Below are positions 1 through 64,000 of a stretch of 64,000 nt of DNA, piece by piece. The position numbers and the translations under genes were made by a program. Positions within the stretch are counted from its first letter, which is position 1, and every line of letters begins with the position of its first letter. This DNA comes from Patescibacteria group bacterium (GTDB lineage: Bacteria; Patescibacteriota; Gracilibacteria; BD1-5; UBA2023), in NCBI GenBank assembly GCA_049293675.1, contig JBAQBR010000001.1, positions 38,273 to 102,272 of the forward strand, given 5' to 3'. The notes under the pieces were generated by a model. It was not told the DNA's origin. It ran no database searches and worked only from the letters and a program-made list of their open reading frames with translations.

Positions 1-30
1 TATATTTTAGTGGATTATTCACCACCCCAT

Positions 31-1554
31 ATGAAATCCACATTCCTTCTCTCAGTTTTTACTGTTACTACTCTGTCGTTTTTATTTTCTACAAGTATCT
101 ACGCAGTAGGTGAATGAAGTAGGATAGACATGAGTGTCTCCCCTATCCGTGATGAGTTCACGGTCGAACGAGGAGCTCCGATAACTCGGACAATTCAATA
201 CTCGAACAATTCTGATGGTCCATACAATATATATATAACAATTGAGGACTGTACTCCAAGTGGGAACTATGGTACCCCTATATGCAAGCTTGCAAGTGGT
301 TCAGGAGTCAATGCTGAGTTCTCATCAACTTGGATTACCGTGAGTGAAACAAGTTTTGTTGTGCCTGCCCGAAGTAGCAAGACGATTACCTATACAGTCA
401 ATCCTCCCAATGGAGCAGCTCCATGAGGCCATTATGGTGCTATATTTTTCAATAATCCAGATACTCCTGTATTCGGTTCCAATACTGTCGGTATGATACG
501 TCGTATTGGTATGCTCTACATGATGCAGATACCTGGAAATATCATCGTAGATCCAAGTCTTGGCTCGATACTCGTAGATGGTCCTGGTGGAGCAGCGAAC
601 TGAGAGGGTTCAATTTTTACATTCAATAGTGCCCCTGACTTCCTAGACAAGATCAGGAAAAACTGGAACAATGCTCCAATGTGGGAAGAGATACTTACGG
701 AGGCCAATCCTCTCTGGGATAAGCCAATGCTCGAAAAAGATAACTTCTCACTCACAATGAAGGTTCCCGTAAGAAACGATGGGAATATCCATATCAGACC
801 AACAGGAAAAGTATATCTCTTCGATGAAAATGGAGTACAACTTGAAAAGGTTGGTAAAGAATCTATTGTTGATGAAAATGGCGTATACATGGGCGAAACT
901 ATTACCAATTACCTTCCTATCAATGATGAGCGCTGAAGTGTCCTCCCAAATACTGAGAGAACTTTTCAGATTGATTGGCTTGGATTTGGCTACGAAGAAC
1001 GTGATCCTGTAACAGGAAAATACGTTATTCAATTTGAGGGCCCTGGAGCATATTATTCTCGACTCACAGAGGAGTGAACTCAGTTCATCTATCCATGGGA
1101 GCGTCTCTCTATCCGCAAGGTAACTCGTACAATCCTCGCAAAGGTTGAATTCACATACAATGATGTGACAACTGGTGAGGATGTAACTAAGACGATGGAG
1201 ATACCTCTCACAGTCAAGTATTCCTATATAGCGAAGACTTTGAATTACGGTATGCTCTTTGCTATCGGGTTCATTATATTCTTTGCCTGGGTATTTATCC
1301 GTAGACGTGATAGACGTATCGAAGTCCTCGAAGAAGAGAACTATGAACTCGAAGATGAGATATCAGTACTCGAACGAGCAAGAGTTGCACATGCCCTCAA
1401 AAAAGAAGCAGCCAAGGCAAGTGAAAAGAAGGTAGTAAAGAAGTCAACTGCAAAAGCTGAAGCAGTAAAAACTCCTACTTCTGTAACGAAGAAACCAACT
1501 GCAAAAAAGACTCCAACTAAAAAACCAGCTACAAAGAATGATAGTCAGGCATAA
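31..1554 (+). CDS. Secreted, C-terminally membrane-anchored cell-surface protein (hypothetical)
   Basis: Frame-1 ORF is open from ATG 31 to TAA 1552-1554 once 5 in-frame TGA (115, 424, 601, 934, 1075) are read as Gly. Track ORFs 130..426, 679..936 and 1165..1554 are colinear fragments. Signal-like N-terminus MKSTFLLSVFTVTTLSFLFSTSIYA, C-terminal TM helix YGMLFAIGFIIFFAWVFI, then an acidic coiled segment and a K/A/T-rich tail. No family recognised. Confidence 0.7.
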
Positions 1555-1557
1555 TAT

Positions 1558-1583
1558 AAAAACCCTCCAATTGGAGGGTTTTT
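1558..1583. terminator. Bidirectional rho-independent terminator between convergent genes
   Basis: Stem CCCTCC (1563-1568) / GGAGGG (1573-1578), loop AATT, A-run upstream and T-run downstream. The radA stop (1582-1584) abuts the T-run. Confidence 0.6.
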
Positions 1584-2904
1584 ATATTTCTTTTACACTT
1601 TTGATTTTCTTTACCTCCATACCTTTCGGAATCTTTCACTCATAACTCGCTGGGATGATAGCATGAGTAAATCCAAGCTTGTGCGCCTCTGCGAGTCTAC
1701 GGTCGAGCATATAAACTGGCTTGAGTGAACCTGTCAGAGATACCTCACCAAGATATATAGTTTTTCCAAGAGGAGATTCTTTTTTGCTCGATATGATGGC
1801 TGCGATACATGCGAGGTCAACTCCAGGTTCCGAGAGTGTGAGTCCACGAGCGATATTGAGATAGACGTCAGATGATTCGAGCTTGATAGATGTGAACTTA
1901 CTCATCACAGCGATGAGGAGTTCGAGTTTGCCCTGAGAGATACCACGAGCCGAGCGTTTTGGATATCCGAACTTGGTATATGTTGTGAGTGCCTCTATCT
2001 CTACGAGAAGCGGACGATTCCCTTCGATAGTAAAAGTCAGGGCAGAACCTGCAAGTTCAGAACTCTCTGGATCTATGAACTCAAGTCCTGGATTCGGTAG
2101 ATCAATCAGTCAGGCCTCCTCCATACGGAAGAGTCATACATTGTCTGTTGGTCCGAATCGATTCTTCAATGCTCGCAGTATTCGATAGTTCTCTGTACGA
2201 ACTCACTCAAGGAAGAGTACAACATCGACGAGATGTTCGAGAGATTTTGGTCATCAGATAGATCCATCCTTGGTCACATGTCAGATGAGGATGATAGACT
2301 TCTGCATTTTTTTTGCTATGTTCATACACATCTCTGTCATTATGCGTATCTGTGAGACACTTCAGGGTGATCACTCGATAGAGCTCGATGACAGGACGGA
2401 GAGTGAATCAATGATAACAATATCAGCATTCGAGCGTTCAATCGTAACAACAATAGAGTCAAAATCTGACTCCGTAATAATATCTATAGCCTCATTGGTT
2501 ACACCGAGCCTATGTGCACGAGCTGATATCTGAGCAATATGTTCTTCTCCGCTCACATAGAGAACATGAGTATTTGTTTTTGGATCTTGTGTATACCACT
2601 CTGCCATCTGGAGAGCAAGGGTGGATTTACCTATTCAGGGCTCTCACGAGAGGAGTACCAGTGAACCAGAAGAGAGTCATCCACCGAGAACATTGTCCAA
2701 CTCACCAGACATACTCATATATCTCTCGATTCCTGAGGCATGGCCCTTGTAGTCGATCTTTGTTGTTTCGAGGACTTTTCATTGTCATATCTTTGATTTT
2801 CGATTTTCCAGTTTTGACTCAGTGAACGTGTTCCACTCGCCACAAGTAGGACACTTCCCTGTCCACTTCGGAGATGTTGTAGAACAATTGGAACAGATAA
2901 ACAT
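1582..2904 (-). CDS. radA: DNA repair protein RadA/Sms
   Basis: Track fragments 1636..1908 and 2371..2607 share one frame, with no TAA/TAG between 2904 and 1585. N-terminal zinc finger CSNCSTTSPKWTGKCPTCGEWNTF. Walker A G-E-P-G-IGKST has both first glycines as TGA (2644-2646, 2635-2637). Lon-like C-terminal domain. Ends IIPASYEGKIPKGMEVKKIKSVKEI, TAA. Confidence 0.9.
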
Positions 2905-2956
2905 AATTCCAGGGGTTAGGTATTAGTATTAGGTATTTTGCCAACAGGAAAGACAT

Positions 2957-3532
2957 CTACTGGTTATCTTCGCCTCTCAACTCTTCTTGTATCTTCCCGT
3001 ATTCAAAACCCTTTCGCATCAGTGCAGAGTAAAACTTCTGTTTTTCAGAAGCAATACCAAGATTATACTTATTTTTATATTTTTGCACTTCTTTTTTGAG
3101 TCAATTATCATCATCACATGACTCTATATATTCTGTGATCTCGTCACGAAAGTATGGATATTTTCCTATGATTGTCATTGCGATGATACGAGTTGACTTC
3201 CCTCGATTGAGAAGCGTCTGAATCTGGTATTCTATCTGAGTTCTGTGAGTATCCCAATCGAGTATCTCGATGTCAGATAGCGCTATTTTTTCTTCAATCA
3301 TATCTTTTGGGAATTCTTTTTTGAAGAGCTTCTGATACATCTCTCGTCTTCCCTTGCCAAGAGAGAGAAAACTTCGCATCCACATATCACACATGAGACT
3401 CTCATCATAACCCATCTCAGAGAGAAGTTCAGTTATATTTTCAACCTTTTTTTTCATAAGGTATCCCGTTACCTTTTTCTTCGATGGTGCATACCGCGAT
3501 ATATAGTTCGAGAGTCGAAGTTGTATATTCAT
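2957..3532 (-). CDS. recX: Recombination regulator RecX-like protein
   Basis: Lies directly downstream of radA on the same strand. Start chosen at MNIQLRLSNYISRY (ATG 3532-3530). Reads through TGA 3101-3103 to TAG 2957-2959. Helical repeat composition is typical of RecX (…MYQKLFKKEFPKDMIEEKI…, …KFYSALMRKGFEYGKIQEEL). Assignment comes from motif resemblance and context only. Confidence 0.7.
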
Positions 3533-3608
3533 AGGAAGATGATAATCATTTTTTGACAAGAACAAAAAAATCTGATACACTCTACTCATATCCCATAAAA
3601 ATACAAAT

Positions 3609-3815
3609 ATGGACACCGATGATATCTTGACTCTCCCGCTTCCTATGGGTCCCCATGCACGTGCATCATATCGCTCACGCATGCAAGCACTCAAAGAATA
3701 CGGCATCAATCCAGCAGCCATAAGTATGACTGAAGATAATCGTCATATTGCACAAGCGGCTCGGCATGAGCGTGAACGCATCCTCAAGGGCGAACACGAC
3801 GTATTCATTGCATAG
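3609..3815 (+). CDS. Small hypothetical protein (68 aa)
   Basis: ATG-to-TAG ORF in an otherwise unassigned 395-nt gap. Locally more GC-rich than its surroundings and contains the 12-nt palindrome ATGCACGTGCAT. No recognisable motif. It could instead be non-coding. Confidence 0.3.
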   Translation: MDTDDILTLPLPMGPHARASYRSRMQALKEYGINPAAISMTEDNRHIAQAARHERERILKGEHDVFIA

Positions 3816-3928
3816 CAATACAGTTCTCTCTCCACAAATTCGAGACCTTAATAGGTATCGGATTTTTTCTTGCATTTACCAGAAAATATGTACAATGTCT
3901 ATTGTCTTTTATATAATAATATTTTTAT

Positions 3929-5599: not shown

Positions 5600-5600
5600 T

Positions 5601-5630
5601 AAAAAATCCTGATATAGTTCAGGATTTTTT
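5601..5630. terminator. Bidirectional rho-independent terminator
   Basis: Stem AATCCTGA (5605-5612) / TCAGGATT (5619-5626), loop TATAGT, flanked by an A-run and a T-run. Sits between the convergent stops 5597-5599 and 5643-5645. Confidence 0.65.
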
Positions 5631-5642
5631 ATTGTATAAGTA

Positions 5643-6215
5643 TTATTCTGGGTAAAATATTCTTCGTAATTCTTCTTTCTTTTCTAGGGATAGACGTGCC
5701 TCATACAATATTGGAAGGAGGTTCCAATGATGGTGGAATCATGGATGTGATGAGAGCTCTAGGAATTCATCAAACGTAACAGTAAAAAGTGTTATTTTCT
5801 CTCCAGAATCAGGTATGATATTTCATACTTGATAACATTCTCTTGCAATATAGTAATATACAGACGTTGTCACATTTTTAGTTCATGAGAATTCAAACCA
5901 TGGAACTATATTTTTTGTAGTATATCCTGTCTCTTCTTGGAGCTCTCTTAGTCAACATGTTAGCGGGTCTTCTTCAGGAAAATCAAAAGAACCTCAAGGG
6001 AGAGAGATGAACTCAGCAATAAGTGGTTGTTCTTGTCTTGTGAGAAGAATTCTTCAGTCAGGTAATATAGGAACAACGAATGCGCCATCGAGAAATCGTA
6101 TAGATTCAAACCGACTTATGGAGCCATCATACATAACCTGGTCCCACTGATATATCCGTGATCGAACTCAAGAAAATACGAGCTCAGCATGTTCTGGAAT
6201 TTTCTGTGAAGACAT
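5643..6215 (-). CDS. NUDIX hydrolase
   Basis: Not in the track because it is broken by 8 TGA. Translation MSSQKIPEH… contains the Nudix box G-GSFDFPEEDPLTC-G-LRELQEETG. The first box Gly is TGA at 5994-5996. Ends TAA 5643-5645. Confidence 0.85.
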
Positions 6216-6278
6216 GATCTTGCGTGTCGGTTATAGGCTAAATTATGGTTTTGATTCTCAGCAGTGGATCCTTCGTCT

Positions 6279-7814
<1,536 letters not shown>

Positions 7815-8910: not shown

Positions 8911-8911
8911 T

Positions 8912-8952: not shown

Positions 8953-9027
8953 TGGCTCCCCAAATTGGATTCGAACCAATGACCTACCGGTTAACAGCCG
9001 GTTGCTCTACCGCTGAGCTATTGGGGA
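8953..9027 (-). tRNA. tRNA-Asn (anticodon GUU), CCA encoded
   Basis: 75-nt cloverleaf read by hand: acceptor TCCCCAA/TTGGGGA, D arm GCTC-AGCGGTA-GAGC, anticodon arm ACCGG-CTGTTAA-CCGGT, variable AGGTC, T arm ATTGG-TTCGAAT-CCAAT, discriminator G, CCA. Confidence 0.9.
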
Positions 9028-9114: not shown

Positions 9115-10824
9115 ATGAATCACCTAAACATACATATAGACACCTTTGAACGGGATGGTGAAGTAATCATCGGTAATATATCTACTATCATCAACGCTGA
9201 CGATCGTATAGCACTTATTGGGCCTAATGGTATAGGCAAAAGTACTCTCATGAAAATAATCTCATGAGAAGTTTCTGAGTATACTGGAGGAATAGAAAAT
9301 ATCTGAGGTATCACTCTCGGATACTTGGAGCAGATTCATTTTATGGATGAAAATAAGACAATCCGTGATGAATTAGCAGATGCCTTCTCTGAGATACGGA
9401 AACTGGAGAAAGTAATACAAGAAGAGGAGGAAAAGATGTCAGAAACTGGTGAATATGATGCCTATACAGATGCTCTCGAGAGGTACAAGCTCCTTGGTGG
9501 ATATACTTATGAGAATGAAGTAGAGCGAGTTGCACGAGGGATTGGGATATTTCACCTGATAGAGAAGCCACTTGTAGCTGTATCTGGATGAGAACGGACC
9601 AAGATAGCACTTGCCAAGATACTCCTCTCCCGACCAGAGTTTCTCCTTCTTGATGAGCCAACAAATTTTATCGATCTCACATCCGTCGAGTGGCTTGAGA
9701 AGTATCTCGTCGAAACTTGGAAATGAGGATACCTTATTGTCTCTCATGACAGAGAATTCCTTGATGAAACCTGTACGAGTGTCATCGAAGTAAGGTGAAA
9801 AGCTGGGATAACTATATATGCAGGTAACTACTCTGATTCCGTTGCAGAGAAGAAAAAAATGCTTGCAAAACAAGAAAAGGTCTATGAAGAACAACAGACA
9901 ATGCTTGAGAGTGAGAAGGCTCTCATAAACCGATTCCGTGCAGGTTCACGAGCTGGATTTGCCAAAAGCCGAGAAAAACAACTTGAAAAAGTTGAACTCA
10001 TAGAAAAACCTGAGGTACGCATCGGGGTCAAATTCAACTTTCCATATGATAAGCATGGACCAGAAACTCTTATCAAGATAGAAGATGCCTTCATTGGTCG
10101 TAAAGAGCCACTTTTCTATGCACGTGAAGCTCTTCTCACCAAGTGAGATAGAGTTGGTATCGTTGGTGAGAATTGAGTCGGTAAGAGTACTCTTATCAAG
10201 ACTCTCCTCTGAGATATCAAGGCCCTTGAGGGCTACGTTCATGTTCATGAAAATACCAAGATACTCTACTTCTCACAACTTCATGAAACTCTCAATATAG
10301 AAAAGACCATCTATGAAAACTTCCATCTACATGGATACAACTTCACACGAGAACGAGTCGGTGGACTCATAGGTATGTATGGTTTTGGCTACTTCGACAC
10401 AGAGAAGAAAATCTCTTCCCTCTCTGGAGGTGAACGTTCTAGACTTCTTTTTGCACTCCTCTGACTCAGGGAATCCAATATACTCATCCTCGACGAGCCG
10501 ACCAATCATCTAGATTATGAAACGCGAGAATCTCTTGAGCTCGCCATCAGGGAATATGGAGGAACGGTACTTTTTATCTCGCATGATCGCTACTTTGTGA
10601 ACAAGCTTGCGAGCAAACTCTGGATTATTGAGGATGGTGAACTTATCATCTCTTATGGAAACTATGATGACTATAGATTCAAGCGTGAACGAGGCATATC
10701 ACTCGATATGTCACTCTTCGATGCTGATGGTGAGCTCGATATCGTACTAGAAGAGAAACTCGGGGCCGTCGAAATGCGACGCATCAGGGAAAAGTTCGCA
10801 CGAAAGAAAAAAAGAAGGAATTAA
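9115..10824 (+). CDS. ABC-F family ATPase (two ABC cassettes, no TM domain)
   Basis: Frame-1 ORF checked line by line from ATG 9115 to TAA 10822-10824. Walker A GPNGIGKST and GEN-G-VGKST (Gly as TGA at 10174-10176). Signatures VSG-G-ERTK and LSGGERSR. Walker B LLLDEPTN and LILDEPTN. Confidence 0.9.
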
Positions 10825-17393: not shown

Positions 17394-17501
17394 GGAAAAT
17401 GACTATACTCAGCGCTCAGTATAGGAAGAATCTGGAAAATTGCACAGAAAAAAGTCTTTCCGAAAACAAAAATTCTATTCTTGTATAATTATTGTATCCA
17501 T

Positions 17502-18272
17502 ATGTACATATTTGATATCTCACTTTTCGGCATCCACATTGCCCCGACATGGTACTGACTCATGTATGCGATTGGATTTTCTTTTTGTTACTTTTTTGTA
17601 GGTAAATACGGTAAAGTACAGAAAAAACACATGGACACACTCCTTCTCTTTGTATTTTTTTGAGTTATTGGTGGTGGGAGAATCGGTTATGTACTCTTCT
17701 ACAATCCAGCATACTTCATGGGTAACCCCGAAGAAATACTTGCGCTCTGGAATGGTGGAATGAGCTTCCATGGAGGATTCTTGTGAGTACTCATCGCTGT
17801 ATGGATATTCGGTTGGAAATATAGATATAGATTTTTTGAGATTACTGATATATTGGCAGTCTGCCTTCCTGTTGCTCTCGGACTTGGACGTATAGGCAAC
17901 TGGATCAATGGGGAACTCCCATGATATGCTGGATATACCTGAACTCTGGCGATGACTATCGGAGATGTTTCCTACTTCCCAAGCCCTCTCCTTCAGGCTT
18001 TCTTAGAGGGGATCATCCTTACAATCATCATGATGATATTCTGGAAAATATGATTCTCTCGGAGAGTATGATTTTTATCTGGGATTTTCCTTCTCTGATA
18101 TGCTTCAGTGAGACTCATCGCGGAGCAGTTCCGTCTTCCTGATGAACATATTGGATATCTTTTTGGAACATCATGGATGACTCTTGGCATACTCTATACA
18201 CTCCCAATGCTCCTTGCTGGATGGATTATCCTCACACACTCATTTAAAAATAAAAAAGAAACTAACGAATAG
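17502..18272 (+). CDS. lgt: Prolipoprotein diacylglyceryl transferase
   Basis: Absent from the track because of many TGA. Translation [26 protein letters not shown]… includes [27 protein letters not shown] and [11 protein letters not shown]. Polytopic. Ends TAG 18270-18272. Confidence 0.85.
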
Positions 18273-20403: not shown

Positions 20404-20438
20404 GTGAGATGACTTTATTTTTTATCTATTTTCGTGGT

Positions 20439-23099
20439 ATGAGTGATTTTCCAAAACAATACGATCCAAAAATCTCAGAAAAGCAGGTTCAATCTCTCTG
20501 GGAAGAAAAAAACTGCAGTGCACCACAGGAGTCCACAAGTGGGAAAACCTTCTATATACCTATTCCCCCTCCGAACGTAACAGGCAATCTCCATATTGGA
20601 CATGCACTCACACTCACACTCGAAGATATCATGACTCGTTATCATCGTATGCGCGGTGATTCAACTATCTGGATTCCTGGAACAGACCATGCTGGTATCG
20701 CAACACAGGCCAAGGTAGAGGAACGCGTTATCAAGTCTGGATCATCACGTCATGCACTCGGGAGAGAAAAATTCCTCGGTGAATGTTGGAAATGGATCGA
20801 CGAATACGGTGGAAACATCCAGAATCAGATGAAGAAGATGGGGGCATCCGTGAGTTGGGAACATGAGCGATTCACTCTCGATGACAAGTCCAATAATCTC
20901 GTAGAGAACATATTCGTCGACCTCTATAATAAGTGACTTATATACCGTGGTGAGTATATGGTGAACTACTCCCCTGCCCTCGAATCAGTGATATCCGATA
21001 TCGAGGTAGAACATGTAGAAGTAGAGGAAAAGATGTACTACATCAACTACTTCGTAGCAGGAAGTGACAATGAGCTCCTTGTTGCAACAACACGTCCAGA
21101 GACACTTCTCGGAGACCAAGCAGTTATGGTGCATCCGAAAGATAAGCGATACAAGAAGCTCATCGGTCGTACTGTCATCCTCCCGATAGTCAACAAGGAG
21201 ATACCCATCATCGCCGATGACTCTGTCGATATGGAGTTCGGTACAGGTGTGGTGAAGGTAACTCCTGCACACGACCCAACAGACTTTGAAGTTGCAAAAC
21301 GTCATGGACTCAGAACTGACTATCGTGTAATCGAGAAGAATGGTGTCATGACCCCTGAAGCAGGCATATTTGCTGGGCAAGATAGTACCACTGAAGCACG
21401 CAGTAATATCGTCGAACTCCTCAAGAGCAAAGGCAATCTCGTAAAGATAGAACCATATACACACAAGGTAGGATTCTGTTCTCGTGGGAATTGTCGTATC
21501 GAATCTGTAGTATCAACACAGTGGTTCGTCAGAGCGAGCAAGATGGCAGAGAAGGTTATCGTTGGTTACAGGAAAAAGGAATTTGAGATACTTCCAGAGA
21601 GATTTAATAAGACATTTGAGGATTGGATTTTTAACCTCCGTGACTGGTGTATCTCTCGCCAACTCTGGTGGGGTCATCAGATACCAGCATACTATGATAT
21701 CGCGACTGGTGAACTCCTCGGTGTCACGAGGAATCCTGAAGATATCTATGCAAAATATGGCAAAGAAAATGTAAGACGTGATGACGATGTGCTTGATACT
21801 TGGTTCTCAAGTGCACTCTGGCCATTCTCTATCCTTGATTGGAATATCGACAATCCTGGAGAGTTTTTTAAGAAGTACTATCCTGCCAATGTCCTCGAAA
21901 CAGGATATGATATTCTGTTTTTCTGGGTAATTCGTATGTTCCTCATGGGATACGAATACACTGGACAGACTCCATTCAAGACTATCTACCTGCATGGACT
22001 CATATTCGACTCGACAGGACGTAAGATGAGTAAAAGTTGGGGCAATGTCGTCGATCCACTCACGGTCATCGACGAGTATTCGACAGATGCTCTGCGTATG
22101 GCTTGTGTCATCGGAAATACTCCAGGCAACAACCTCAACTTCTCGATGGATACAGTGAAAGAATATTCACTTTTTCTCAACAAGTTCTGGAATATAGCTA
22201 GGTTCATCTGGATGAATATCGGAAGTATCACAGAAGAGAGAGAGGCTATTGTATTGCGTATCAAGAAGTGAGAAAAAGATCTCCTCCCATATGAGAAATG
22301 GATACTTTCTCGCCTCTCATATACAATTGAGAACGTCACAGAAGGTATGGAAAACTACGGATTCTCCGCTATCGGTGCTGAACTCACAAGCTTTATCCGT
22401 GATGAGTTCGCAGACTTCGCTATCGAGGCATACAAGGTAGAAAAAGATCGAAGTACTCTTGGACGTGATGTCATGAGCCTCTGTATCCTCGACATCCTCT
22501 CATTATTCCATCCATACGCACCACATATCACAGAGGCGCTCTACCAAGAGATCACAGAACAGAAGTCTCCACTGATGACGGCTCCATGGCCAACTCCAGC
22601 ACTTCCACGTAACAAGGAAGCAGAGACAGATATGAATCGTATATTCGATATTGTACGCACTATCCGCAATCTCAGGGCTGAGAGTGGTATCAAGCCAGGA
22701 GATCTCCGCGACGTCGCCATCGTATGTCCTGATGCTTACAAGCAGAACATCGAAGCCAATACCTACTTCCTCACTGGTCTCACCAAGATTGCAACACTCA
22801 CCCTCGGCAAAAAACCTGCCAAGCAAAGTGAATATGCATACGGAGTTATTGGTGGAATCGAGATATATATCGATGCACATATCGATGCAGAGAAAGCTCT
22901 CGAAGAACAAGTCCGCCTCAGAGAACAGATGGAGAATAAAAAAGACTACATACGAGTTCTGAAAGCGAAGATGAGTAACTCCCAGTTCGTCAAGAATGCC
23001 CCAGAAAAAGTCGTCCGTGCCGAGATGGAAAAACTCCATACAACGGAGAATGAACTCGCCAAACTCGAAGAAAAATATAAGAGTCTTGGTGGAGAATAA
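20439..23099 (+). CDS. valS: Valine--tRNA ligase
   Basis: Fragments 20409..20936, 20958..22271 and 22347..23099 are colinear, with only two TGA (20934-20936 in LYNK-G-LIYRG, and 22269-22271). Motifs PPPNVTGNLHIGHAL and KMSKS. C-terminal coiled coil. Start set at ATG 20439 (MSDFPKQYDP). Confidence 0.95.
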
Positions 23100-25192: not shown

Positions 25193-26470
25193 CTACTTCA
25201 TAGAACTAAAAAAACTTTCTTTTTTTCTCTTCCAATCAGGAGTCTGACGACAGAGTCGTGAAACATCTTGTCTCTGTGCGAGGAGCATCTCTATGGCTTC
25301 CTCGAGGAATATCGTATTTTGGCTTCACTTTACATATACCATTGCAGGTTTTGTTTGTTTTTTTGAGAGGAGCTCTTTGATACTTTTTCATGCTTCACGA
25401 GACGAGAGAAAGCTCTCTACCTGGAATTTTGGTCTGAGTATTGGGAGGACATATTGCCTCATATATGGTCCAACTAAGAAAAAGTATACATCACCCGTAT
25501 TGTGAGGAATCATTGAGATTATCTCTTCTGCAAGTTTTTGATGAAGGGACTCTGTCTCGATACCGAGTTCGCGCATATCCCCAATGAGGAATATGAGTGT
25601 GTGAGATGAGAGAAAAGAACGCATTGAGGCAATACCGCCGTGGAGTGAGAGATATCCTCCGTTGTAGCTCCCATCGATAATCGTTGAACCACCTATCCCA
25701 TCGAGTATCGCAGAACGACCCGGCTCACTATGAGTATGGAGAGCGTATGGTGCAATCTCATCAAGAGAGAGTCCCCATATCTCAGCAATCCCATAGAGAG
25801 GAAGGAGATTGACAATATGAAAAGCGCCAAAAGCATGCAGAGTGACAGGATAATCCCTTCTCTGAAAGTGCACAATAGCAGATGTACCAGTATGAGTAAT
25901 ATCGATATGTGAAGCGTCTATCTCAGACATAGCGCCAGTGCCATAGTAGAGTGCCTCTCGTTCGATAGAGTCACGAAGCGAGTCATGTATGATGATATCG
26001 CGAGCGCCCTGGATGAGCTTGAGTTTTTCTTTTTTGTAGAGGTCAAAAGTTCCAAACTGTTCGATATGATTCGGTGCTACTTCTGTGATGATGGCGATAT
26101 CAGGTACTGCGATAGAGAGGAGGAAGTCCATCTCGCCTGGATGGTCTATCCCATATTCTAGAACAAGATATCGAGGATACGGGCGGAAGAATTGGGATAT
26201 TGCAACAACAAAAACCCAAAGCCACTTAAATGGATTTTTTCAACCTGTTTTTGCTCAGATAATCGTGAGCGGAAGTCAGTATTCACCATTATAATGATCT
26301 CTCGAATACCCAATCTTCTCATGCGGGAGAACTCGTGAGAGGTACGCATGTACATGGGCTGTGACCGTTGTCTTTCAGACGGTTCCAGTAATTCATACAA
26401 CTTTTGGCTTATGAAAAGAGATGATATTCTTAGCAAAAAATGCTAAGATCGAAAGTATAAGTTTTTGCAT
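25193..26470 (-). CDS. murF: Mur ligase family protein, MurF-like (D-Ala-D-Ala adding enzyme), lacking the usual N-terminal domain
   Basis: Fragment 25388..26131 was extended in frame both ways. P-loop KPKVVGITGTVGKTT begins about 20 aa from the chosen start (ATG 26470; the alternative ATG 26530 adds 20 aa). Central and C-terminal Mur ligase domains are present. C-terminal VYVK-G-SQNTIFLEEAIEML has Gly as TGA at 25325-25327. Ends TAG 25193-25195. Confidence 0.75.
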
Positions 26471-29518: not shown

Positions 29519-30499
29519 ATGACACTATACTATTTCATACTTTTCATACTGTGACTTTGCTTTTGAAGTTTTAGTACAGTACTCATATCTCGATGGTATA
29601 GTGGACAAGGTGGCATCATGATGTGACGCAGCGAGTGTCCCCATTGCCAACATATACTTACCGCACGTGAGCTTGTTCCACTATTCTCATGGATATTCCA
29701 GTGAGGCAAGTGTGCCAATTGTCATACCCGTATACCCGCATATTACCCACTCTCTGAGATATTCATGGGATGATTATTTGTCTGGTCATGATGGATATCC
29801 CTCAGATTCGGCTATACCTGGGAAGATATGATGTGGTGGGTATTTTTATTTTGGACATTCGTAACGGCAATCTATGTGATATACGATATTCGGTATATGG
29901 AGATACCCGACCAGATAGTCGTCCCTGGGATTATCATAACACTTGGACTCATTCTTGGTGGACTTATCTCCGAAGAATATAATGTATTTTTTGATTATTC
30001 ATCATATGATACTTTTCATACTTTTCTAACCGATCATATAGCTTCTGCAATATTTCTCTATTCATTCTTTTTTCTTCAGATACTGATACCATGAGCGATA
30101 TTCCTCTACAAACAAAGACTCTACACAAAAATACTTGAACTCATTCTCAGTTATTTTACGTTTCCTATTACCTTAATTATTGATTTTTTCCGAAGGAGAG
30201 AACATAAGGAGGAACAAAAAGACATAGACATAGAAATACCAACCTGGATAGGATGAGGGGATCTTAGGATAGCATTCTTTATAGGACTCACACTCTGAGG
30301 TATACACTCTATCACAACACTTATCTTTGCATATGTAATCGGGAGTATTGTATGAGTCAGTATGCTCATACATGGTAGATTCCACAAGAGACAAAACTCT
30401 CATGAGATTGCTTTTTGACCCTTTCTGGGTATAGGCTGGATTCTTTCTTTGACATTTTATTCAGAGATATTAGATTATGTAAATATATTTTATCTATAG
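29519..30499 (+). CDS. pilD: Prepilin peptidase (A24 family, PilD-like)
   Basis: Translated by hand with 14 TGA. N-terminal Cys motif CPHCQH…CANCHT. Aspartyl-protease motifs …IG-G-GDLRI (Gly as TGA at 30254-30256) and AF-G-PFLGIG. Polytopic. Ends TAG 30497-30499. Confidence 0.85.
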
Positions 30500-48447: not shown

Positions 48448-48892
48448 TGGTGGAGATGGCGAGCACTGCCCTCGCGTCGAAAAAGGTACACCGGATGCAT
48501 CTACTCTCTGTAGTTCGATTTTGATATATTGTAGAATAGAAAATGAACAAAAAGCTCTACAATAATACGTTTTCTAGTATTCAGTACCTATGAATTACAT
48601 ATGTTAAGTTCGGACTGAAACTTGTAAGTAAAACAATTCTCTACAAGCTTTGAGAATCGAGTTGTGTAGCAGGCCAGCCGGCACTCATCCTAATATAGGA
48701 GGCTACATTCTTGAGTGATTAGACAGCAAGAATTATGCAAATACACGAGCTGCAGGCATGAAGCTAGCAAGACGAGTAAGTGCAGAAGTTGTAGATTTTG
48801 CATCTATTGTGTGTCATTTGATAACGAGGCTGACCGCCCCGAGAGAGCACATACGACATACGATTCTTTTCCTCGAATCCTATATCATCCCC
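48448..48892 (-). ncRNA. ssrA: tmRNA (SsrA)
   Basis: 5' end GGGGAUGAUAUAGGAUUCGAGG and 3' end …GCGAG-GGCAGUG-CUCGC-CAUCUCC-A-CCA form a 7-bp acceptor stem with the G3:U pair. GGGGCGGUCAGCCUCG precedes AAUAGAU-GCA, which matches the E. coli resume context AAUAGUC-GCA. The tag ORF runs from GCA 48801 down to UAA 48735-48733 and encodes AKSTTSALTRLASFMPAARVFA. Confidence 0.85.
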
Positions 48893-49829: not shown

Positions 49830-49986
49830 ATACCTTTACAAAAAGAACAAAATAATTATAGCTCATATTTTCATGAATGTCAATAATTTTTCAATACTTT
49901 TATGAAGTGTCAAATATATAGCGTGAAATATATTCGATTTTTCGTAGTTTTTCTGTATATTGAGGCACATATTAAGCAAATCAACT

Positions 49987-51489
49987 ATGTCTCTCCAGCT
50001 CTACAACACTCTCACTCGCACAGTAGAACGATTCAAGCCCATCAAGCAAGATGAAGTAAAGGTCTACTATTGTGGGCCAACACCGTATAATTACGCTCAT
50101 ATCGGGAATCTCAGAGCCTATCTGACATCGGATTTTGTCGTACGATCACTACGCTATCTTGGCTACAAGGCGAGAACAGTTATGAATATCACTGATATCG
50201 ACGACAAGACTATCCGCGACAGCCAGAAGTCAGGCCAGTCACTTCAAGAATTCACTGAGTTCTATGCTGGAGAGTTCCTCGCAGACCTAGACAGACTCCA
50301 CATCGTCCGTGCAGATATCATAGCACCTATCTCAACCCTCATCGAGGATATGGGCAAGATGATTCAGTGACTCCTCGACAAGTGATATGCTTACCTCGCA
50401 GATGACGGGAGTATCTATTATAGTGTGAGCAAGTTCCGCAAATACGGTGAACTCGCACATCTCGATATGAGTGGACTCATATCCTCTGTACGCATCAACA
50501 ATGACGAATATGAAAAAGATCAAGTTGCAGACTTCGCGCTCTGGAAGGCGTATGATAGTGAGTCCGACGGACCGAATAAGTGGACAATTCAACTAAAAAT
50601 CAACAACGAGCAGGTAGCAATCGAGTGACGTCCAGGCTGGCATATCGAATGTAGCGCATGTAACTACCGATTCTTCGGTGAGCAGATAGATATCCACATG
50701 GGTGGTATCGACAATCTCTTCCCTCATCATCAGAACGAAGTCGCACAGACAGAGGCATATACCGGGAAGCAATTCTCGAAGTACTGGATGCACGGTGGGC
50801 ACCTCCTCGTAGACAACAAGAAGATGGCAAAGTCTGCAGGCAACTTTTATACTCTTCGCGATGTAGTTGAGAAGCAATCAGATACAGCCCCAGAGCTTAT
50901 CTATCGCTGATTCCGCCTGATGGCACTCCAGAACCAGTATAGAGAAAATTTTAACTTCACATTCGAACGTCTCGGTGCAGCAATCAACACTATCCGCGGA
51001 CTCGATGAGATGATGAAACGACTCGGACGATACATAGAAAAACTCCCTGAAACAAGTGAAGAACGTACGGGGCGGGGCAAGCTCAAGTTCCATGAGATCT
51101 CTCGTGAGTTCCGTGAGAATCAACAGGCATTTATGCAGGAATTTATCGAAAAACTCGAAGACGACTTCGATACAGTATCCGCTATGACGACGGTATTCGA
51201 ACTCCAGGGATACGTGAACTCTGGTATCGATGATGAGACTTTTTCTCTCGAAGAAGCAAAATCCCTAAGAGATATATTGAAGAGTTGGAATGAAGTGCTT
51301 GGTATACTTGATTTTACACTCCTTGAGTCAGAAACACTTCCTGAAGATATACAGAAACTCGCACTCGACCGCTATGACGCCAAGATAGCAAAAAACTGGG
51401 CAGACGCAGACAAAATCCGTGATGAACTCGCTGCTAAGTGATACAAGATGATCGATGAGAAGGACGGCTGGAGAGTAGAGAAGATCTAA
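49987..51489 (+). CDS. cysS: Cysteine--tRNA ligase
   Basis: Four track fragments are colinear. Start [11 protein letters not shown] (ATG 49987). Motifs [14 protein letters not shown] (Gly as TGA at 50626-50628, Trp as TGG), KMAKS. Reads through TGA 51439 to …[19 protein letters not shown] 51487-51489. Confidence 0.95.
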
Positions 51490-54692: not shown

Positions 54693-55244
54693 ATGATACA
54701 ACCAATCCTCAAGATATTCAAAAAAATCTGATATTCCCTCGGGTCGTCACGATGGCTCGCACAAAGACTCGTCAAAGAAAGTGGGATATCAAACAAACGG
54801 AATATACACATACTAGAACTCGGAGCATGATATGGCAATGTAACCAAGGAGATCATAGAACATCTCCATGCGAGCTCGACTCTCACTGCCATCGAATTCG
54901 ATACAACTCGATTCCAAGAACTCAAAAGATTCGAACAGAAAAATGTAAAAATCCTCCATGCGAGTGTTGCTCACCTTGATGAATACATAGATGAAAAAAG
55001 TATTGATTGTATTATCTCTACTCTCCCGCTTGGAAGCTTCGAGAAGAGCTTCACACAAGAAATACTCCAAAAGATATCATACGTCCTCAAAGAAGATGGT
55101 AAGTATATACAGTACCAATATTGGATGGTAAACCGAAGTGATGTGAAGAAGCTATTTTCTATCGAGAAAACCGTACTGGAACCAAGGAATTTTACTCCAG
55201 CTTTCATCTATATATCAGAAAATAATGCGAATAAATCTCTATAA
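54693..55244 (+). CDS. Class I SAM-dependent methyltransferase
   Basis: Motif I ILELGA-G-YGNVT, with the central Gly as TGA at 54828-54830. Motif II-like IDCIISTLP. Post-I acidic residue in AIEFD. Ends TAA 55242-55244. Confidence 0.75.
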
Positions 55245-57851: not shown

Positions 57852-57878
57852 GGTTCAGAAAATAATCCCATATTCCCT

Positions 57879-58958
57879 ATGTTGGCTCTTGCATACCTTC
57901 ACAGTGCTGGTTTTACACACAAAGACCTCAAAAAACTTTTTGAAATCGAAGAGAACTATGAGGATATCTATGAACTATGTGCGTCAGGGAAATCTATCTC
58001 AACCCCTTGGATTACAACAGAAAGGAAGGCTAAGATACTTGATAATCTAAAAACTCTCGATGTATGAAAAATAGGAAAAATCATACAAGAGAAAAACATA
58101 GCACTCATAACACTCCATGATGAGAGATATCCAGAAAAACTCCGCACAATAAAACAAGCACCATATATGCTCTATGTACGAGGTGACTTGCATGAGGAAC
58201 GTAAGATGCTGGGTATTGTAGGTTTACGCAAGAGTACCAGTTACGGCAAGAAAGTCCTCGAAAAGATAATTCCTGAACTCATCCAATCTGGTTGTTGAGT
58301 TGTGAGTGGTGGTGCATATGGTATCGATGCGATATCTCACGAGATCACACTTGCTCATGGAGGATATACTATATCTGTATTTGGTTGTAGTGTGGATATA
58401 CTCTATCCAGCTCAGAATATACGACTCTTCGAAAATATATTGAAGTTATGAGGTGCTCTTGTCTCGATATTCCCAATAGGAACCAAGGCTGAGTCCTACA
58501 TGTTCCCCATACGTAACGAAGTGGTTGCGGCCCTCTCTGATGGGATCATCATACCCGAAGCAGGAGTCAAAAGTGGGACTCTCATCACTGCAGGGCTCGC
58601 TCTCGAACACGGACGAGATGTATTCGCTGTACCTGGAGATATATTCCGCGAGACCAGTGAGTGAACCAATCAGCTCATTGCTCGTTGAGAGGCGAAGTGT
58701 ATCAAGTCAGCATCAGATATCCTCGAAGACTACTTTCCGAATATGTCCATGACTCCTACTTCCCTCTTTTCACAAAAAGAGTTTGCATCCGAAGAACAAA
58801 AGGTTATATATAGTACTATCTCCGAATGATATGATACACCAGATACTCTCGGACAAAATACTGATTATACGATAGATACAATCATCATGACCCTGGCACT
58901 TCTCGAGATGGACTGACATATCAGACTCTCTACGTCAGGAAGATACGAGATACTCTAA
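57879..58958 (+). CDS. dprA: DNA processing protein DprA (Smf)
   Basis: Frame-0 lines 58021-58950 were checked. Rossmann-like core LGIVGLRKSTSYG…VVSGGAYGIDAISH…YPAQN…FPIGT…FPIRNEVVAALSDGIIIPEAGVKSGTLITAGLALEHGRDVFAVPG. C-terminal winged-helix-like tail. Ends TAA 58956-58958. Confidence 0.9.
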
Positions 58959-59457: not shown

Positions 59458-59611
59458 GGTAGATTATTTTTCATAGAAATATTATCTTTTGGCTACAGAT
59501 AAGTACGCTGAGAGTTGCAATTTTTCTATTTTTGGATACAATCGGGCGAATACATCACCCATATCTTACTGGTGATTCATTGTCTCTTATACTATCAATT
59601 TTCATGTTCCT

Positions 59612-60637
59612 ATGATTTCTTTTACAAAATTCAAAAAAGTAGCACTTGTCTGAGGATGAACAGGTGGACATGTCACACCGATTGTCGCACTCGTACAAGA
59701 ACACAAGGATACACATATTGACTACATCTGGATCTGAGGCAAGAACTCACTCGAAGAAACTGAGGCAAAAAAAGAAAATATCAAATTCTTTAGTATAAGT
59801 ACCCTCAAACTCGCAACTGTATTCTCTCCCAAGATTATTCTCTATCCATTCATTCTTGTTCGTGGGATACTCCAAGCAAGATCGGTACTCGTACATGAGA
59901 AGCCTGATGTTGTCTTTTCTAAGGGATGACCTGGATCTGTTGCTGTAGGTATAGCAAGTTGGCTCTTGCGAATACCTCTCTGGATACATGAATCAGACAC
60001 TATACCAGGTTGGTCTAATCGTCTACTTGGTCGCATAGCCGAGAAGATATTCCTATGATTCGACATCGCAAGACGACATTTTCCTGATATGCGCTGTACT
60101 GTTGTTGGACAGATCATAAGCCCTGACATGCTCAAGCCACCAAAAGAATACAAATACTGGAAAACAGAAAAAACCCACATATTTGTTATCTGTGGAAGTC
60201 AATGATCACGCAGTATTTTTAAGGCGATTACATCTACATGTAAGTATCTCGATGTTGAATGGATCATCCTTCTTGGACTCCTCAACAAGGATTCTCGTGA
60301 CCTTTTCCATGACTTTCCACACGCAACGATATATGATTGGATTGACTCGCATACAGTTGCCTCCATCCTCAGTAAGTCCGATCTTGTGATCACACGCGGG
60401 AGTGCCACAACACTCGCCGAGATAGATCTCTTCAAAAAAAGAAAAATCATAGTTCCCTACCCATGGAGCTCGCAGAATCATCAACATCACAATGCTATGT
60501 GGTACAAAGAAAATCGTAATGACATAGTAATCGATGATGGAGAACTCATGGATAATCTTCTCAAAACTGTGACAGAAACACTTACGCGTGACACAATAGA
60601 AAAAAAGATGGAACGAGCAGATACATTTTTACGATAA
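59612..60637 (+). CDS. murG: Undecaprenyl-PP-MurNAc-pentapeptide-UDP-GlcNAc transferase (MurG)
   Basis: Hand translation MISFTKFKKVALV-G-G-G-TGGHVTPIVAL, with TGA at 59651-59653 and 59657-59659 inside the GGTGGH motif. …ITRGSATTLAEI… in the C-terminal half. Joins track ORF 60386..60637. Ends TAA. Confidence 0.85.
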
Positions 60638-60648: not shown

Positions 60649-62418
60649 ATGGAAAAGCCATACACAAAAACCGAAACATTCAAAGAGATAACCATTCATC
60701 TAAAAAAAGTAAAAAAGGACTGGAAGGTCCTTCTTTTTCTATTATTACTCCTTGTTGGTGCCATATCGAGTGAGCCTTATTTTTATAAGTGGCTCATATC
60801 CAGCATAGAAGAACAGAGGTGAATCACTGATCTTTTTATCATCATATCGATATGGACGGTTGTATGAGTATCTACGATTTTCCTACGATACGCCTATGGC
60901 ATGAGACTCCTCTCTCGTGCAATGGACGATTGGGGGAACTTCCTGATGAAGATCATGTCGAAGATGCACCTCCTCCCAATAGAGTATCATCGCAATATCC
61001 AAGCTTGAGAAAAACAAAAGATTGTCGATCGGGCAGCAGAAGCAGTCTGGACTGTAGCGGATAATTTTATCCTCGCGGTATTGCCTCAATTACTCGTCTT
61101 TATCGTACTTCTTGTATCTGGCATTATTATTGATCCTGTCTTCACTCTTATCTGTCTCGCATTCCTACCTATGTGAGTACTCTGAGTATACTACTTCGGG
61201 AACCAAGCACATACGAACCAACGAGTCGCCAACAAAAAATGGGATAGGATGTATGATAGACTTATGGATGGCATTATCAATCTTCCTGTAATTCGTATAT
61301 TCGCGCGGTCAGACCGAGAATACGATATCATGCGGACACGACTCGATGAGTGAAGTGATGCACAAGTGGTTGTACGGAAGAACTGGAGTCAATTCAACGC
61401 TTTTGGCAGGTTTTTTACTGTGATAGCGAAACTCATCACGATATCTGGAGGGGGCATCCTCCTCTATATGGGCAAGACTGATTTCCCAACATTTTTCTTT
61501 TTTATAGCTTTTACCGATAGGATATATTCCCCTATTATGGAACTATTCAATGTCGTACAGAACAGCATGCGCGACATCGCCTACTATGAAAAAGCGAAAG
61601 AAGTATTCATGATGGAAGATGAGAAAGACGATGGAAAAGAACTCCTCAAGTCCATCAAAAAATCTATCCGATTTGAGAACCTCTCATTTTGCTATCCATC
61701 TTCTCCACGTGAGGTCCTCTCAGGTATTGATTTTGAGATAGAGAAGTGACAACGCATCGCTCTCATCGGACACACAGGAAGTGGAAAATCCACCATCATC
61801 CAACTCCTCATGCGATTCTATGAGCCAACGAGTGGCAAGATACTCATCGATGGGACTGATATATACAACTACACTCTCACATCCTACAGGCAGAAGTTCG
61901 CTGCAGTATTCCAGGATACAACGCTCTTCAACGAGACTATCAGACACAATCTCGAGTATGTCCGAGATGGTATCACGGAAAAAGAACTCAAAAAAGCATG
62001 TAAAGAAGCCAATATCCTCGAGTTCATCGAGTCACTTCCTGAAAAGTGGGAGACTCAAGTTGGTGAGAGAGGACTCAAGCTCTCAGGTGGAGAGAAGCAA
62101 CGTATCGCTATAGCACGATCCATACTCGCCAATCCCGAGATACTCATCCTCGATGAGGCAACAAGTGCACTCGATACCAAGACTGAGCGACTTGTACAAG
62201 AAGCATTCGACCACCTCATGGATGGACGTACGAGTATCATCATCGCGCACCGCCTCTCGACTATTCAGTCAGCAGACATCATCTACCTCATGGATAAGGG
62301 TCGTATTATCGCCTCTGGCAATCACTCCGAGCTCTATAGATCTTCAAGAGAATACCAAGAGATGGTCGATATGCAACATGATGGATTCGTGGGGGAAGAT
62401 GAAGAGGAGGATTCTTAA
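60649..62418 (+). CDS. ABC exporter, fused permease/ATPase (MsbA/ABCB-like)
   Basis: ATG 60649. Six-TM region, then Walker A GHTGSGKST, signature LSGGEKQR and Walker B ILILDEATSALD. Fragments 61366..61749 and 61810..62418 are colinear. Confidence 0.9.
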
Positions 62419-62432
62419 CTTTCTATATAATC

Positions 62433-62759
62433 ATGTCTACCTCTAGTTCCACTCTCGACTACATTCTCGAATGTCTCTTATGCGTTCCTGACCTCCGAGC
62501 AAAAGCTATGTTCTGAGAATATGGAATATACTCATGAGATCGCATGTTCGCACTTGTCTGTGATGGGACGCTCTTTTTTAAGACCTTTCCACAGACGATA
62601 GGATACTTCGAGGATACCGAGACCAAGGCGTATCCAGGAAGCAAGAACACTGCACCAGCCAATCCTGACTGGCTCGAGAATCGGGAAGAACTCCTGAAGG
62701 TAGCTACTCTCACTCTATCTCTCACTCCACCACCCAAACCAAAAAAGAAGAGATGTTAG
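62433..62759 (+). CDS. TfoX N-terminal-domain-like protein
   Basis: ATG 62433. …LRAKAMF-G-EYGIYS-G-DRMFALVCDGTLFFK… resembles the TfoX_N core (MFGgyglY.dg.mFalv.d..LyfK). Basic Pro/Lys tail. Ends TAG 62757-62759. Confidence 0.55.
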
Positions 62760-64000
62760 CCTCCTCTATATCGTTCCCTTGCCTCCGCAGCACTCTCCTT
62801 CTGTCACACAATCGGTCGATGATATCTGCCTGAGAGATTCAGTGTATGGATATCTCTCGGTTCAATTCACTCAAGTTCCGGAATATATTGCTTGATGAAC
62901 TCGCACTCAGTATCGAACTTCTCTGATTGTAATAGGGGGTTAAAAATACGTACAGGCTTGGGGTCTGCACCCACACTTGCACTCCACTGCCAGTTCCCAT
63001 AATTCACTGCCTCATCATAATCGATGAGGTATTTTTTGAAGAACTTCTCCCCTATTCTCCAGTCATATCCGAGATTCTTGGTGAGAAAAGATGCTACTAC
63101 CATACGCAGACGATTGTGCATCCAGTTGATCTCTATAAGTTGACGGATAGCTGCATCGACGAGTGGATATCCTGTTTCTCACTTTTCGAACTTTTCATAC
63201 TCATATGTATCTGTATCCGTTTTCCATACAATCGAGCGTCTACGTTCCTGGAATTCGAGCTCATATGTGAATGGGAAATAATACGCAATCTGATACCAGA
63301 ACTCTCGCCAGATAATCTCCGAGAGAAGTGTAGGATTCGATGCAACATTCTGATATATCTCCCGCACTGAAAATATCCCAAGCCTGATATACGGAGAGAG
63401 TCTCGTTGAGCCATCAACTGCAGGGAGATTGCGCAGATCATCATAGTGAGAGAAATCTCTCTCAAGTCTCTCTCGACCAAGTGCAAGACCCCAATACTTA
63501 TGATATGGTACCGTGATACTCTCAGATATCTCCTTCCTATCTTCAAGAACAAGCCACTTCACACTCGAACCATCGAACTCCTGTATCCCGACGCGTTCTG
63601 GATGTGCTATGAGGAACTTCTTCCACAGCATTGAATACGGTGTAAATACTTTCCGTTGTTCACACTCATGTGGCTCAACGAGGAGGAAATCCTGATACGA
63701 GTGAAATCCAACATCATGGCTACGACAATAGAACATGATAGCTTCATCGCGTGTTTTACCACGAGGACTATAACTCCGATTCATAAATACCGCATCGATA
63801 TGATACTTCTCTATAAGTTCTCATATTATATCCTCAGGTTTTCACTGGTAGACCGCGAGTCTCCCACCATACTCCTGGAGTTCTGTATCGATAGATTCCA
63901 GCGCTTCACGGATCAATCCAAAACGCCTATCATCCATACCGAACTCCTCTATTGCACGAGTATCATGGATAAAAATAGGAAGTACTTCTTTTGAATTTCG
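62756..64000 (-). CDS. phr: Deoxyribodipyrimidine photolyase / cryptochrome family (5' end beyond window)
   Basis: Fragments 62867..63121 and 63179..63784 are colinear and the frame stays open to position 64000. Motifs TGYPLVDAAIRQL…WMHNRLRMVVASFL and DYDEAVNYGNWQWSAS. Reads through TGA 62867 to …YHRPIVGQKESAAEAR…, TAA 62756-62758. Overlaps the convergent TfoX-like stop by 4 nt. Confidence 0.9.

Follow-up and report, generated by a model that had tools for sequence, protein, structure and literature searches.

Does UGA end translation in this DNA and, if not, what does it encode? Read with the standard code, the window (the whole stretch of DNA analysed here, 64,000 nt long) has a longest open reading frame (ORF) of 444 aa and a total of 19.5k aa in ORFs of at least 100 aa. 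With TGA as a sense codon, the longest ORF reaches 1756 aa and the total 58.8k aa at the same threshold, a threefold gain in ORF content, whereas the controls brought nothing comparable: the total came to 32.9k aa with TAG as sense and 26.1k aa with TAA as sense, and the longest ORF stayed at 444 aa in both. UGA is thus a sense codon here.

The genes that result were curated as a set of CDS of at least 80 aa, the choice of frame being checked by inspection over greedy longest-ORF calls (the greedy frames at 48650-48913, 49356-49886, 51434-52114, 54668-55102 and 57168-57920 were replaced). A preliminary description of this DNA had counted about 54 CDS; we count 47, together with one tmRNA and one tRNA (Table 1). 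It was right that the rebuilt genes stop at TAA or TAG, as TAA closes 33 and TAG 14 of them, with no other stop in use. In-frame TGA amounts to 383 codons in 45 of the 47 genes (19.0 per 1000 codons), and neither a frameshift nor an in-frame TAA or TAG occurs in any of the 47. TGA codons are spread evenly across deciles along the genes, as GGN codons are, and with no excess of TGA towards the C-termini we rejected a residual role of UGA as a stop. The further claim that a hairpin often follows the stop holds for a minority of genes and not as a general rule: the 60-nt stretches 3' of genes fold below the 5th percentile of intragenic controls in 10 of 47 cases (2.4 expected), canonical terminators with A-tract, GC stem and T-tract were found for about 13 of the 47 genes, and a simple terminator pattern scan of positions 1-20000 gave 17 matches against 10.7 +/- 3.5 in shuffles, a weak enrichment.

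Table 1. Features of the window referred to in the text (coordinates are window positions; x in a motif marks a residue encoded by TGA).
Feature	Coordinates	Strand	Remarks
Whole window	1..64000	.	47 protein genes, 94.6% coding density with TGA as sense
radA	1582..2904	-	14 in-frame TGA
Nudix hydrolase	5643..6215	-	Pfam NUDIX; 7 TGA versus 5 GGN
metG (methionyl-tRNA synthetase)	6279..7766	-	11 in-frame TGA; Pfam tRNA-synt_1g
tRNA-Asn(GUU)	8953..9027	-	Sole tRNA in the window and the 82.6 kb around it
ABC-F ATPase	9115..10824	+	9 TGA
lgt	17481..18272	+	Pfam LGT; 8 TGA
valS	20409..23099	+	Only 2 TGA versus 54 GGN
Mur ligase (MurF-like)	25193..26470	-	TGA in P-loop and in KxS
Prepilin peptidase (PilD-like)	29519..30499	+	Pfam A24_N_bact, Peptidase_A24; 11 TGA
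tmRNA, 445 nt	48448..48892	-	Rfam RF00023, 75.9 bits, E = 1e-27
cysS	49960..51489	+	TGA at 50383-50385 (KxYAY) and 50626-50628
SAM-dependent methyltransferase	54693..55244	+	Pfam Methyltransf_25, starting at motif I
murG	59489..60637	+	G-loop VxGxTGGH with TGA at 59651-59653 and 59657-59659

The meaning of the codon can be read from homologues in a standard-code organism, for which we used E. coli K-12 (15 proteins, 5874 aligned positions). Tabulating the homologue residues opposite TGA, a check that had been proposed for the glycine reading, gave 43 Gly, 6 Ala, 5 Arg, 4 Pro and no Trp among 86 sites; against a Gly background of 7.4%, the binomial probability of so many glycines is 5e-26. GGN codons face Gly at 201 of 362 sites and are not distinguishable in this from TGA (Fisher p = 0.40), whereas TGG codons face Trp at 44 of 81 and differ sharply from it (Fisher p = 3e-18). 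By leave-one-out likelihood, Gly is the best amino acid for TGA, 49 nats ahead of the next. About half of the TGA sites lie opposite residues other than Gly because the proteins have diverged, and GGN codons behave alike.

Closer relatives point the same way. Compared as raw codons across 79 ValRS-related loci, all from uncultured MAGs (best 91% identity), TGA in the window faces GGN in 38% of cases, TGA in 22% and TGG in 0.3%, even though a TGA in the subject was scored as Trp. The majority non-TGA residue in these loci is Gly at 100 of 165 window TGA sites, and TGG in the window corresponds to Trp in 76% of the relative alignments. A near-identical RadA variant (P0003) carries G, implying a GGN codon, at a position that is TGA in the window. 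Composition fits as well, since Gly makes up 6.1% of the window proteins with TGA excluded and 8.0% with TGA counted as Gly, UGA then supplying about 24% of all Gly codons. The standard-code homologues, the codons of the 79 relatives, the composition and the near-identical strain variant each show independently that UGA is read as glycine, and not as Trp, Sec or a stop.

All 12 TGA codons to which the preliminary description had pointed are in frame (appearing as TCA on the plus strand in minus-strand genes), and its claim that they sit on invariant glycines fails for valS 20934, murG 59651 and PilD 30254. Both glycines of the RadA Walker A motif (GxxGxGKS) are encoded by TGA, at 2644-2646 and 2635-2637; the two are likewise Gly in E. 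coli RadA, and against S. pneumoniae RadA (PDB 5lkm) the TGA sites of the gene face 10 Gly, 2 Ala, 1 Val, 1 Ile and no Trp. In the second Walker A motif of the ABC-F ATPase (GENxVGKST), TGA at 10174-10176 is Gly in E. coli EttA, as are six of the nine TGA sites of this gene; for lgt the corresponding figure is six of eight against E. coli Lgt. TGA in metG lies mostly opposite Gly in PDB 2csx and 4qrd, for example in SKxLGNV. The two cysS sites are Gly in E. coli CysRS, and at the second of them Trp is still encoded by TGG. The P-loop of the MurF-like ligase (GxTGTxGKTT) has TGA at both marked positions, which are Gly in T. maritima MurF (PDB 3zl8); this alignment stops short of the C-terminal KxS site (25325-25327), for which support comes from relatives only (TGA in 14, GGN in 3). 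Motif I of the methyltransferase (ILELGAxYG) has TGA for its central G, at 54828-54830.

Four sites call for comment. The valS codon at 20934-20936, in LYNKxLIYRG, is opposite Asp in E. coli, and relatives have TGA in 44, GGN in 24 and GAT in 5 cases. E. coli MurG has Ala at 59651 and Gly at 59657, with Gly at four of six aligned murG TGA sites; none of the related loci covers this gene. The PilD-like codon at 30254-30256, in IGxGD, occupies what we take to be the variable position in GxGD; relatives have TGA in 5 and GGT in 3 cases, and a search for PDB homologues of this protein gave no match. The Nudix codon at 5994-5996, previously called the first Gly of the Nudix box, is indeed TGA and lies within LPxGSF, with GGT at the site in two relatives; a reading of the motif suggests that this G opens a conserved PGG doublet and is not the canonical Nudix-box G.

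Translation table 4, in which UGA is Trp, has several insect endosymbionts among its users; it occurs in the Mycoplasmatales, Hodgkinia, Zinderia, Nasuia, Stammera and some Eggerthellaceae, lineages unrelated to this one. It shares with the window a sense UGA and genes ending at UAA or UAG, it recovers long ORFs equally well as table 25, and it has been applied to this DNA in the Logan and ENA gene catalogues, whose table 4 proteins include a RadA with Trp for all 14 TGA codons, both Walker A glycines among them. We rejected it, and give it almost no chance of being correct: Trp faces none of the 86 TGA sites in E. coli, TGG hardly ever stands opposite TGA in relatives, the Trp content of the window proteins would rise to an implausible 3.2%, and TGA stands for Walker A glycine at both positions in RadA and at one in the ABC-F ATPase. 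More improbable still is that the standard code applies and that the in-frame TGA codons are pseudogene lesions, sequencing errors, Sec codons or sites of programmed read-through, although the NCBI annotation of the record does take TGA as a stop. So many in-frame TGA codons in nearly every gene would then have to coexist with intact frames free of TAA and TAG, and dozens of relatives carry TGA or GGN at the corresponding positions. Sec codons would be expected to align to Cys, and Gly is observed instead; sequencing errors would not explain the same TGA codons in independent NCBI, Logan and ENA assemblies. Sec, pseudogenes and sequencing errors were thus rejected on the number, distribution and conservation of the codons.

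A glycine UGA might also be accompanied by reassignment of CGA and/or CGG to Trp. There is precedent for this, both codons having been predicted as Trp in Absconditabacteria and CGG in some Gracilibacteria (PMC8629427), and CGG is rare in the window (42 codons, 2.1 per 1000). CGA, however, is common (10.0 per 1000). Of 60 CGA sites aligned to E. coli, 30 face Arg and 2 Trp; in relatives the codon corresponds to Arg in 42% and Lys in 19% of cases, a pattern like that of AGA and CGT. The CGG sample is small, with Arg at five of nine aligned E. coli sites and Trp at none (a tenth site is opposite a gap); in relatives, Arg predominates at 6 of 14 CGG sites. The additional reassignment is unsupported and very improbable; both codons still read as Arg here, for CGG on that small sample.

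Table 25 without further change is almost certainly the code in use, and the window is most probably chromosomal DNA of an uncultured member of the Gracilibacteria (BD1-5), with UGA as Gly, UGG as Trp, UAA and UAG as stops and all other codons standard. The preliminary description had proposed either Gracilibacteria or SR1; this is supported, and is narrowed to Gracilibacteria by the NCBI titles of the relatives and by CGA and CGG as Arg. Those record titles are mostly Candidatus Gracilibacteria, the closest relatives included, the others being Patescibacteria or Peribacteria, and the 79 closest ValRS loci include no SR1 record. Among relatives, gene order near valS is not conserved. The window is also represented in a second assembly, GCA_049286235.1: two end overlaps with its contig JBAQDH010000001.1, compared base for base, are 100% identical, all overlaps fetched are identical and cover about 84% of the window, and two more loci of the contig hold window genes at consistent coordinates.

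For table 25, the SR1 and Gracilibacteria code, PMC8629427 cites Campbell et al. (2013) and Rinke et al. (2013) as the first descriptions; the table is applied to GTDB class JAEDAM01, comprising the orders BD1-5 and Absconditabacterales (bioRxiv 10.64898/2026.05.24.727570). The window shares its Gly and Trp assignments and its two stops; its closest relatives carry the Gracilibacteria label, a relative has a Gly-type tRNA(UCA), and the genome is small (JBAQDH010000001.1 is 1.12 Mb); we found no difference, the GC content of 41% lying within the clade range of 0.21-0.53 (PMC8629427). The Absconditabacteria (SR1) variant likewise has UGA as Gly, but differs in CGA and CGG, which are Trp there by Codetta prediction and Arg here, and in a CGA frequency below 3.7 per 1000 (PMC8629427), as against 10 per 1000 here.

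A tRNA(UCA), sought in 82.6 kb of this genome (the window with flanks of 9.9 kb and 8.8 kb, reached through exact matches to standard-code fragments, two further fragments giving no match), was not found there, tRNA-Asn being the only tRNA. One relative does have a tRNA with anticodon UCA (L022:7371-7449), with G1:C72, C2:G71, G3:C70 and U73, the features that serve as Gly identity criteria for tRNA(UCA) (PMC8629427). Its neighbours, from a reading of the translations, are Ndk-like and RluD-like ORFs. By analogy with the clade, a dedicated tRNA-Gly(UCA) with these same identity features would decode UGA in the present genome, and RF2 would have been lost, with RF1 alone terminating at UAA and UAG. 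The tmRNA has a tag frame at 48733-48801, AKSTTSALTRLASFMPAARVFA, ending in TAA; ARAGORN run on the window did not report this RNA.

UGA is not used equally across genes. Its share of Gly codons varies strongly (chi-square 100, 41 d.f., p = 7e-7), valS standing at the low end with 4% and a small membrane protein, VTT/DedA-like, at the high end with 74%. Relatives also use it sparingly in valS: most of the 40 closest have shares of 0-15%, and the mean is 13% versus 22% in neighbouring genes. One might suppose that the choice between UGA and GGN is not neutral in this clade, tRNA-Gly(UCA) decoding being slow or error-prone and counter-selected in some genes, in which case UGA would tune expression. 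We consider this unlikely; composition offers a mundane alternative, as the UGA share drops with rising gene GC3 (rho = -0.44, p = 0.003).

The phenomenon itself is already known: this is textbook table 25, in the lineage in which that code was discovered, and with hundreds of table 25 genomes catalogued it will not surprise a specialist. The deposited records are another matter. The warning that any standard-code annotation of this DNA would be wrong proved true for this genome: the NCBI proteins of GCA_049286235.1, labelled only 'Patescibacteria group bacterium', are standard-code fragments, such as MFZ2256218.1, which holds 89 aa of the 440-aa RadA and ends exactly at an in-frame TGA. The correct table 25 RadA has no exact match in a collection of 15 billion proteins, and a literature search for the accession gave no result. 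Homology searches, structure predictions and metabolic reconstructions made from such records inherit their errors, and the practical value of reading UGA as glycine here lies in the curation of those records.

Reading TGA as a sense codon transforms the coding capacity of the window (G+C 41%). With the standard code, no ORF exceeds 444 aa and those of at least 100 aa total 19.5k aa; with TGA as sense the longest ORF reaches 1756 aa and the total 58.8k aa, and in the control readings, with TAG or TAA as sense, the totals were 32.9k and 26.1k aa, respectively, and the longest ORF remained at 444 aa in both. Non-overlapping ORFs picked by a greedy longest-ORF rule, TGA being read as sense, covered 95% of the window before correction. 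Correcting five places, where a wrong frame had been chosen or the tmRNA was covered, gave a final set of 47 genes with a coding density of 94.6% of the window, in which 383 in-frame TGA codons are spread over 45 of the 47 genes. These genes stop at TAA (33) or TAG (14), as the preliminary description had claimed, although it counted ~54 coding sequences. Its statement that stops are often followed by a hairpin applies to a minority of genes: a simple terminator pattern scan was weakly enriched, canonical terminators follow ~13 of the 47 stops, and for 10 of the 47 genes the downstream stretch has a folding energy under the 5th percentile of that for intragenic controls.

To which amino acid TGA corresponds was assessed against eleven regions of E. 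coli K-12 MG1655, with every window TGA masked as X so that the alignment cannot favour any amino acid there. Across 15 window proteins and 5874 aligned positions, 86 TGA sites faced Gly 43 times, Ala six, Arg five, Pro four and Trp never. The four GGN codons faced Gly at 201 of 362 sites, indistinguishable from TGA (Fisher p = 0.40), whereas TGG, opposite Trp at 44 of 81 sites, differed strongly (p = 3e-18). Gly opposite TGA far exceeds its 7.4% background (binomial p = 5e-26), and a leave-one-out likelihood over all codons assigned TGA to Gly by 49 nats. The same likelihood gave no convincing sign of a second reassignment, its mismatches (AGA, ATG, CAG, CTA, TTA, TGC) being single-codon artefacts or low-count, low-margin cases.

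A residue-by-residue comparison with structural homologues agrees, and the claim that UGA encodes glycine stands. Tabulating homologue residues at TGA, as had been proposed, also gave Gly at 10 of the 14 RadA sites in S. pneumoniae 5lkm (Ala 2, Val 1, Ile 1), both Walker A glycines among them; in MetRS most TGA codons face Gly in PDB 2csx and 4qrd, and both P-loop TGA codons of the Mur ligase are Gly in T. maritima MurF. Gly content is 6.1% from GGN alone and 8.0% with TGA added, while Trp content, 1.28% from TGG, would reach 3.2% were TGA added to it. All 12 TGA coordinates named in the preliminary description are in-frame TGA codons, but three of these supposedly invariant glycines lack invariance: E. 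coli has Asp at valS 20934, a site that is TGA or GGN in relatives; it has Ala at murG 59651, the relative loci having no coverage of murG; and PilD 30254, TGA or GGN in relatives, is presumably the variable x of the GxGD motif.

Scanning with ValRS, at one genome for each GTDB species, yielded 79 related loci, all from uncultured metagenome-assembled genomes and most, including the closest, titled Candidatus Gracilibacteria (best ValRS relative 91% identical). In the raw codons of these relatives, window TGA faces GGN (38%), TGA (21–22%) and rarely TGG (0.3%); window GGA faces GGN (55%) and TGA (15–16%), and window TGG faces TGG (76%). The pattern was unchanged when the relatives' TGA was scored as Trp during alignment, and of the 165 TGA sites covered by enough relatives, 100 had Gly as the majority non-TGA residue. 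ENA also contains a nearly identical strain variant of RadA, with a GGN codon at a position that is TGA in the window.

The suggested origin in either Gracilibacteria or Absconditabacteria can probably be narrowed to Gracilibacteria/BD1-5, as the relatives' titles indicate; there were no SR1 records among the 79 ValRS relatives, and CGA and CGG still read as Arg. In E. coli, CGA faces Arg at 30 of 60 sites and CGG faces Arg at five of nine and Trp at none of nine, whereas both codons are predicted to encode Trp in Absconditabacteria (PMC8629427). Seven of the relatives (L025, L039, L053, L060, L061, L071 and L076) bear the NCBI title 'Candidatus Peribacteria'. The valS of L060, the one such locus checked, has two in-frame TGA codons; table-25 organisms may thus have been given the wrong taxonomic label in these cases.

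Genes differ in the proportion of their Gly codons that are TGA (heterogeneity p = 7e-7), from valS, which is also TGA-poor in most relatives, to a VTT/DedA-like membrane protein (see table). Since this share falls as gene GC3 rises (rho = -0.44), composition is the simplest explanation; selection acting on UGA decoding is a minority reading. Among Leu codons of the window, CTC strongly dominates (46.9 per 1000) and, although G+C is only 41%, TTA and TTG are infrequent (3.6 and 4.2 per 1000). The Ile codon ATA is common (33.7 per 1000).

This clade is known to use a dedicated tRNA-Gly(UCA) and to have lost RF2 (PMC8629427; bioRxiv 10.64898/2026.05.24.727570), and by extension such a tRNA would decode UGA in this genome, from which RF2 would have been lost. 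Across the window and a total of 18.6 kb of flanking sequence, the only tRNA was tRNA-Asn, alongside one tmRNA. A relative, L022 (ValRS 63–64% identical, synteny with the window not kept), has a tRNA with anticodon UCA and Gly identity elements ~2.5 kb from valS. Its acceptor-stem set (G1:C72, C2:G71, G3:C70, U73) is that of tRNA-Gly(UCC) in L025; ARAGORN labelled it tRNA-SeC and drew its anticodon stem with 6 bp. The tmRNA, matched by Rfam and missed by ARAGORN, encodes its own 3' CCA and a predicted tag, AKSTTSALTRLASFMPAARVFA, whose frame ends at TAA, consistent with termination via RF1 alone.

Features of the window and of related loci
Feature	Position	Strand	Remarks
DNA-uptake/recombination genes	1582-3835, 29519-33135, 57879-58958, 62433-62759; locus L097:2402-2911
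Secreted protein, 1721 aa	10846-16011	-	14.9% Gly (60 TGA + 197 GGN)
Neighbouring ORF, 452 aa	16035-17393		no Pfam match
valS	20409-23099	+	TGA share 0.04 (2/56 Gly codons)
ORF with possible prepilin leader	32488-33135
Very large PKD-domain surface proteins (1746 aa, 773 aa) and PKD/SLH protein	36190-43845, 55879-57162	+
tmRNA, 445 nt	48448-48892	-	Rfam, 75.9 bits
Region, ~450 nt	48913-49367		no convincing ORF, no Rfam match
Small ORF between the two regions	49368-49742	-	no Pfam match
Region, ~220 nt	49743-49959		no convincing ORF, no Rfam match
VTT/DedA-like membrane protein	55138-55821		TGA share 0.74 (14/19 Gly codons)
tRNA(UCA)	L022:7371-7449
tRNA(UCA) directly upstream of tRNA-Arg(GCG)	L022:7371-7584

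Competence and pilus genes are often described for CPR bacteria, and the DNA-uptake/recombination genes fit this repertoire: radA, a weak (sub-threshold) RecX-like match, a prepilin peptidase, a TfoX_N protein and a DprA homologue (aligned to E. coli Smf). One ORF has an N-terminus that, judged by sequence, reads like a prepilin leader, and a fragment of a T2SSE ATPase is located immediately upstream of the window. The PKD and PKD/SLH proteins may be cell-surface or attachment proteins. The large secreted protein, with many 'NTAxG..AL..N' repeats and homologues in 16 related loci, has no Pfam match. The strongest hairpin of the window (-23.4 kcal/mol) follows the small ORF near the tmRNA.

The window represents table 25 in the lineage for which that code was defined, and current benchmarks list several hundred table-25 genomes (bioRxiv 10.64898/2026.05.24.727570); the reassignment is thus already known. 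Exact matches of TGA-free genes and standard-code fragments identify the source as JBAQDH010000001.1 (GCA_049286235.1, 1,118,814 bp), whose positions 843,783-907,782 correspond to the window in reverse complement. Two end overlaps compared base for base are 100% identical, and two further loci from that contig carry window genes at matching coordinates. The NCBI proteins of GCA_049286235.1, filed as 'Patescibacteria group bacterium', are standard-code fragments; one of them, MFZ2256218.1 (89 aa, named 'magnesium chelatase domain-containing protein'), covers part of RadA up to its final in-frame TGA. In Logan and ENA the complete 440-aa RadA appears as a table-4 translation in which each of the 14 TGA codons is read as Trp, and the table-25 (Gly) sequence was not found in a collection of 15 billion proteins. 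According to the gTranslate preprint, such annotation errors arise for genomes classified too coarsely by NCBI (bioRxiv 10.64898/2026.05.24.727570). A useful by-product of our analysis is one of annotation: public records mistranslate this genome, either as standard-code fragments or with Trp in place of Gly.
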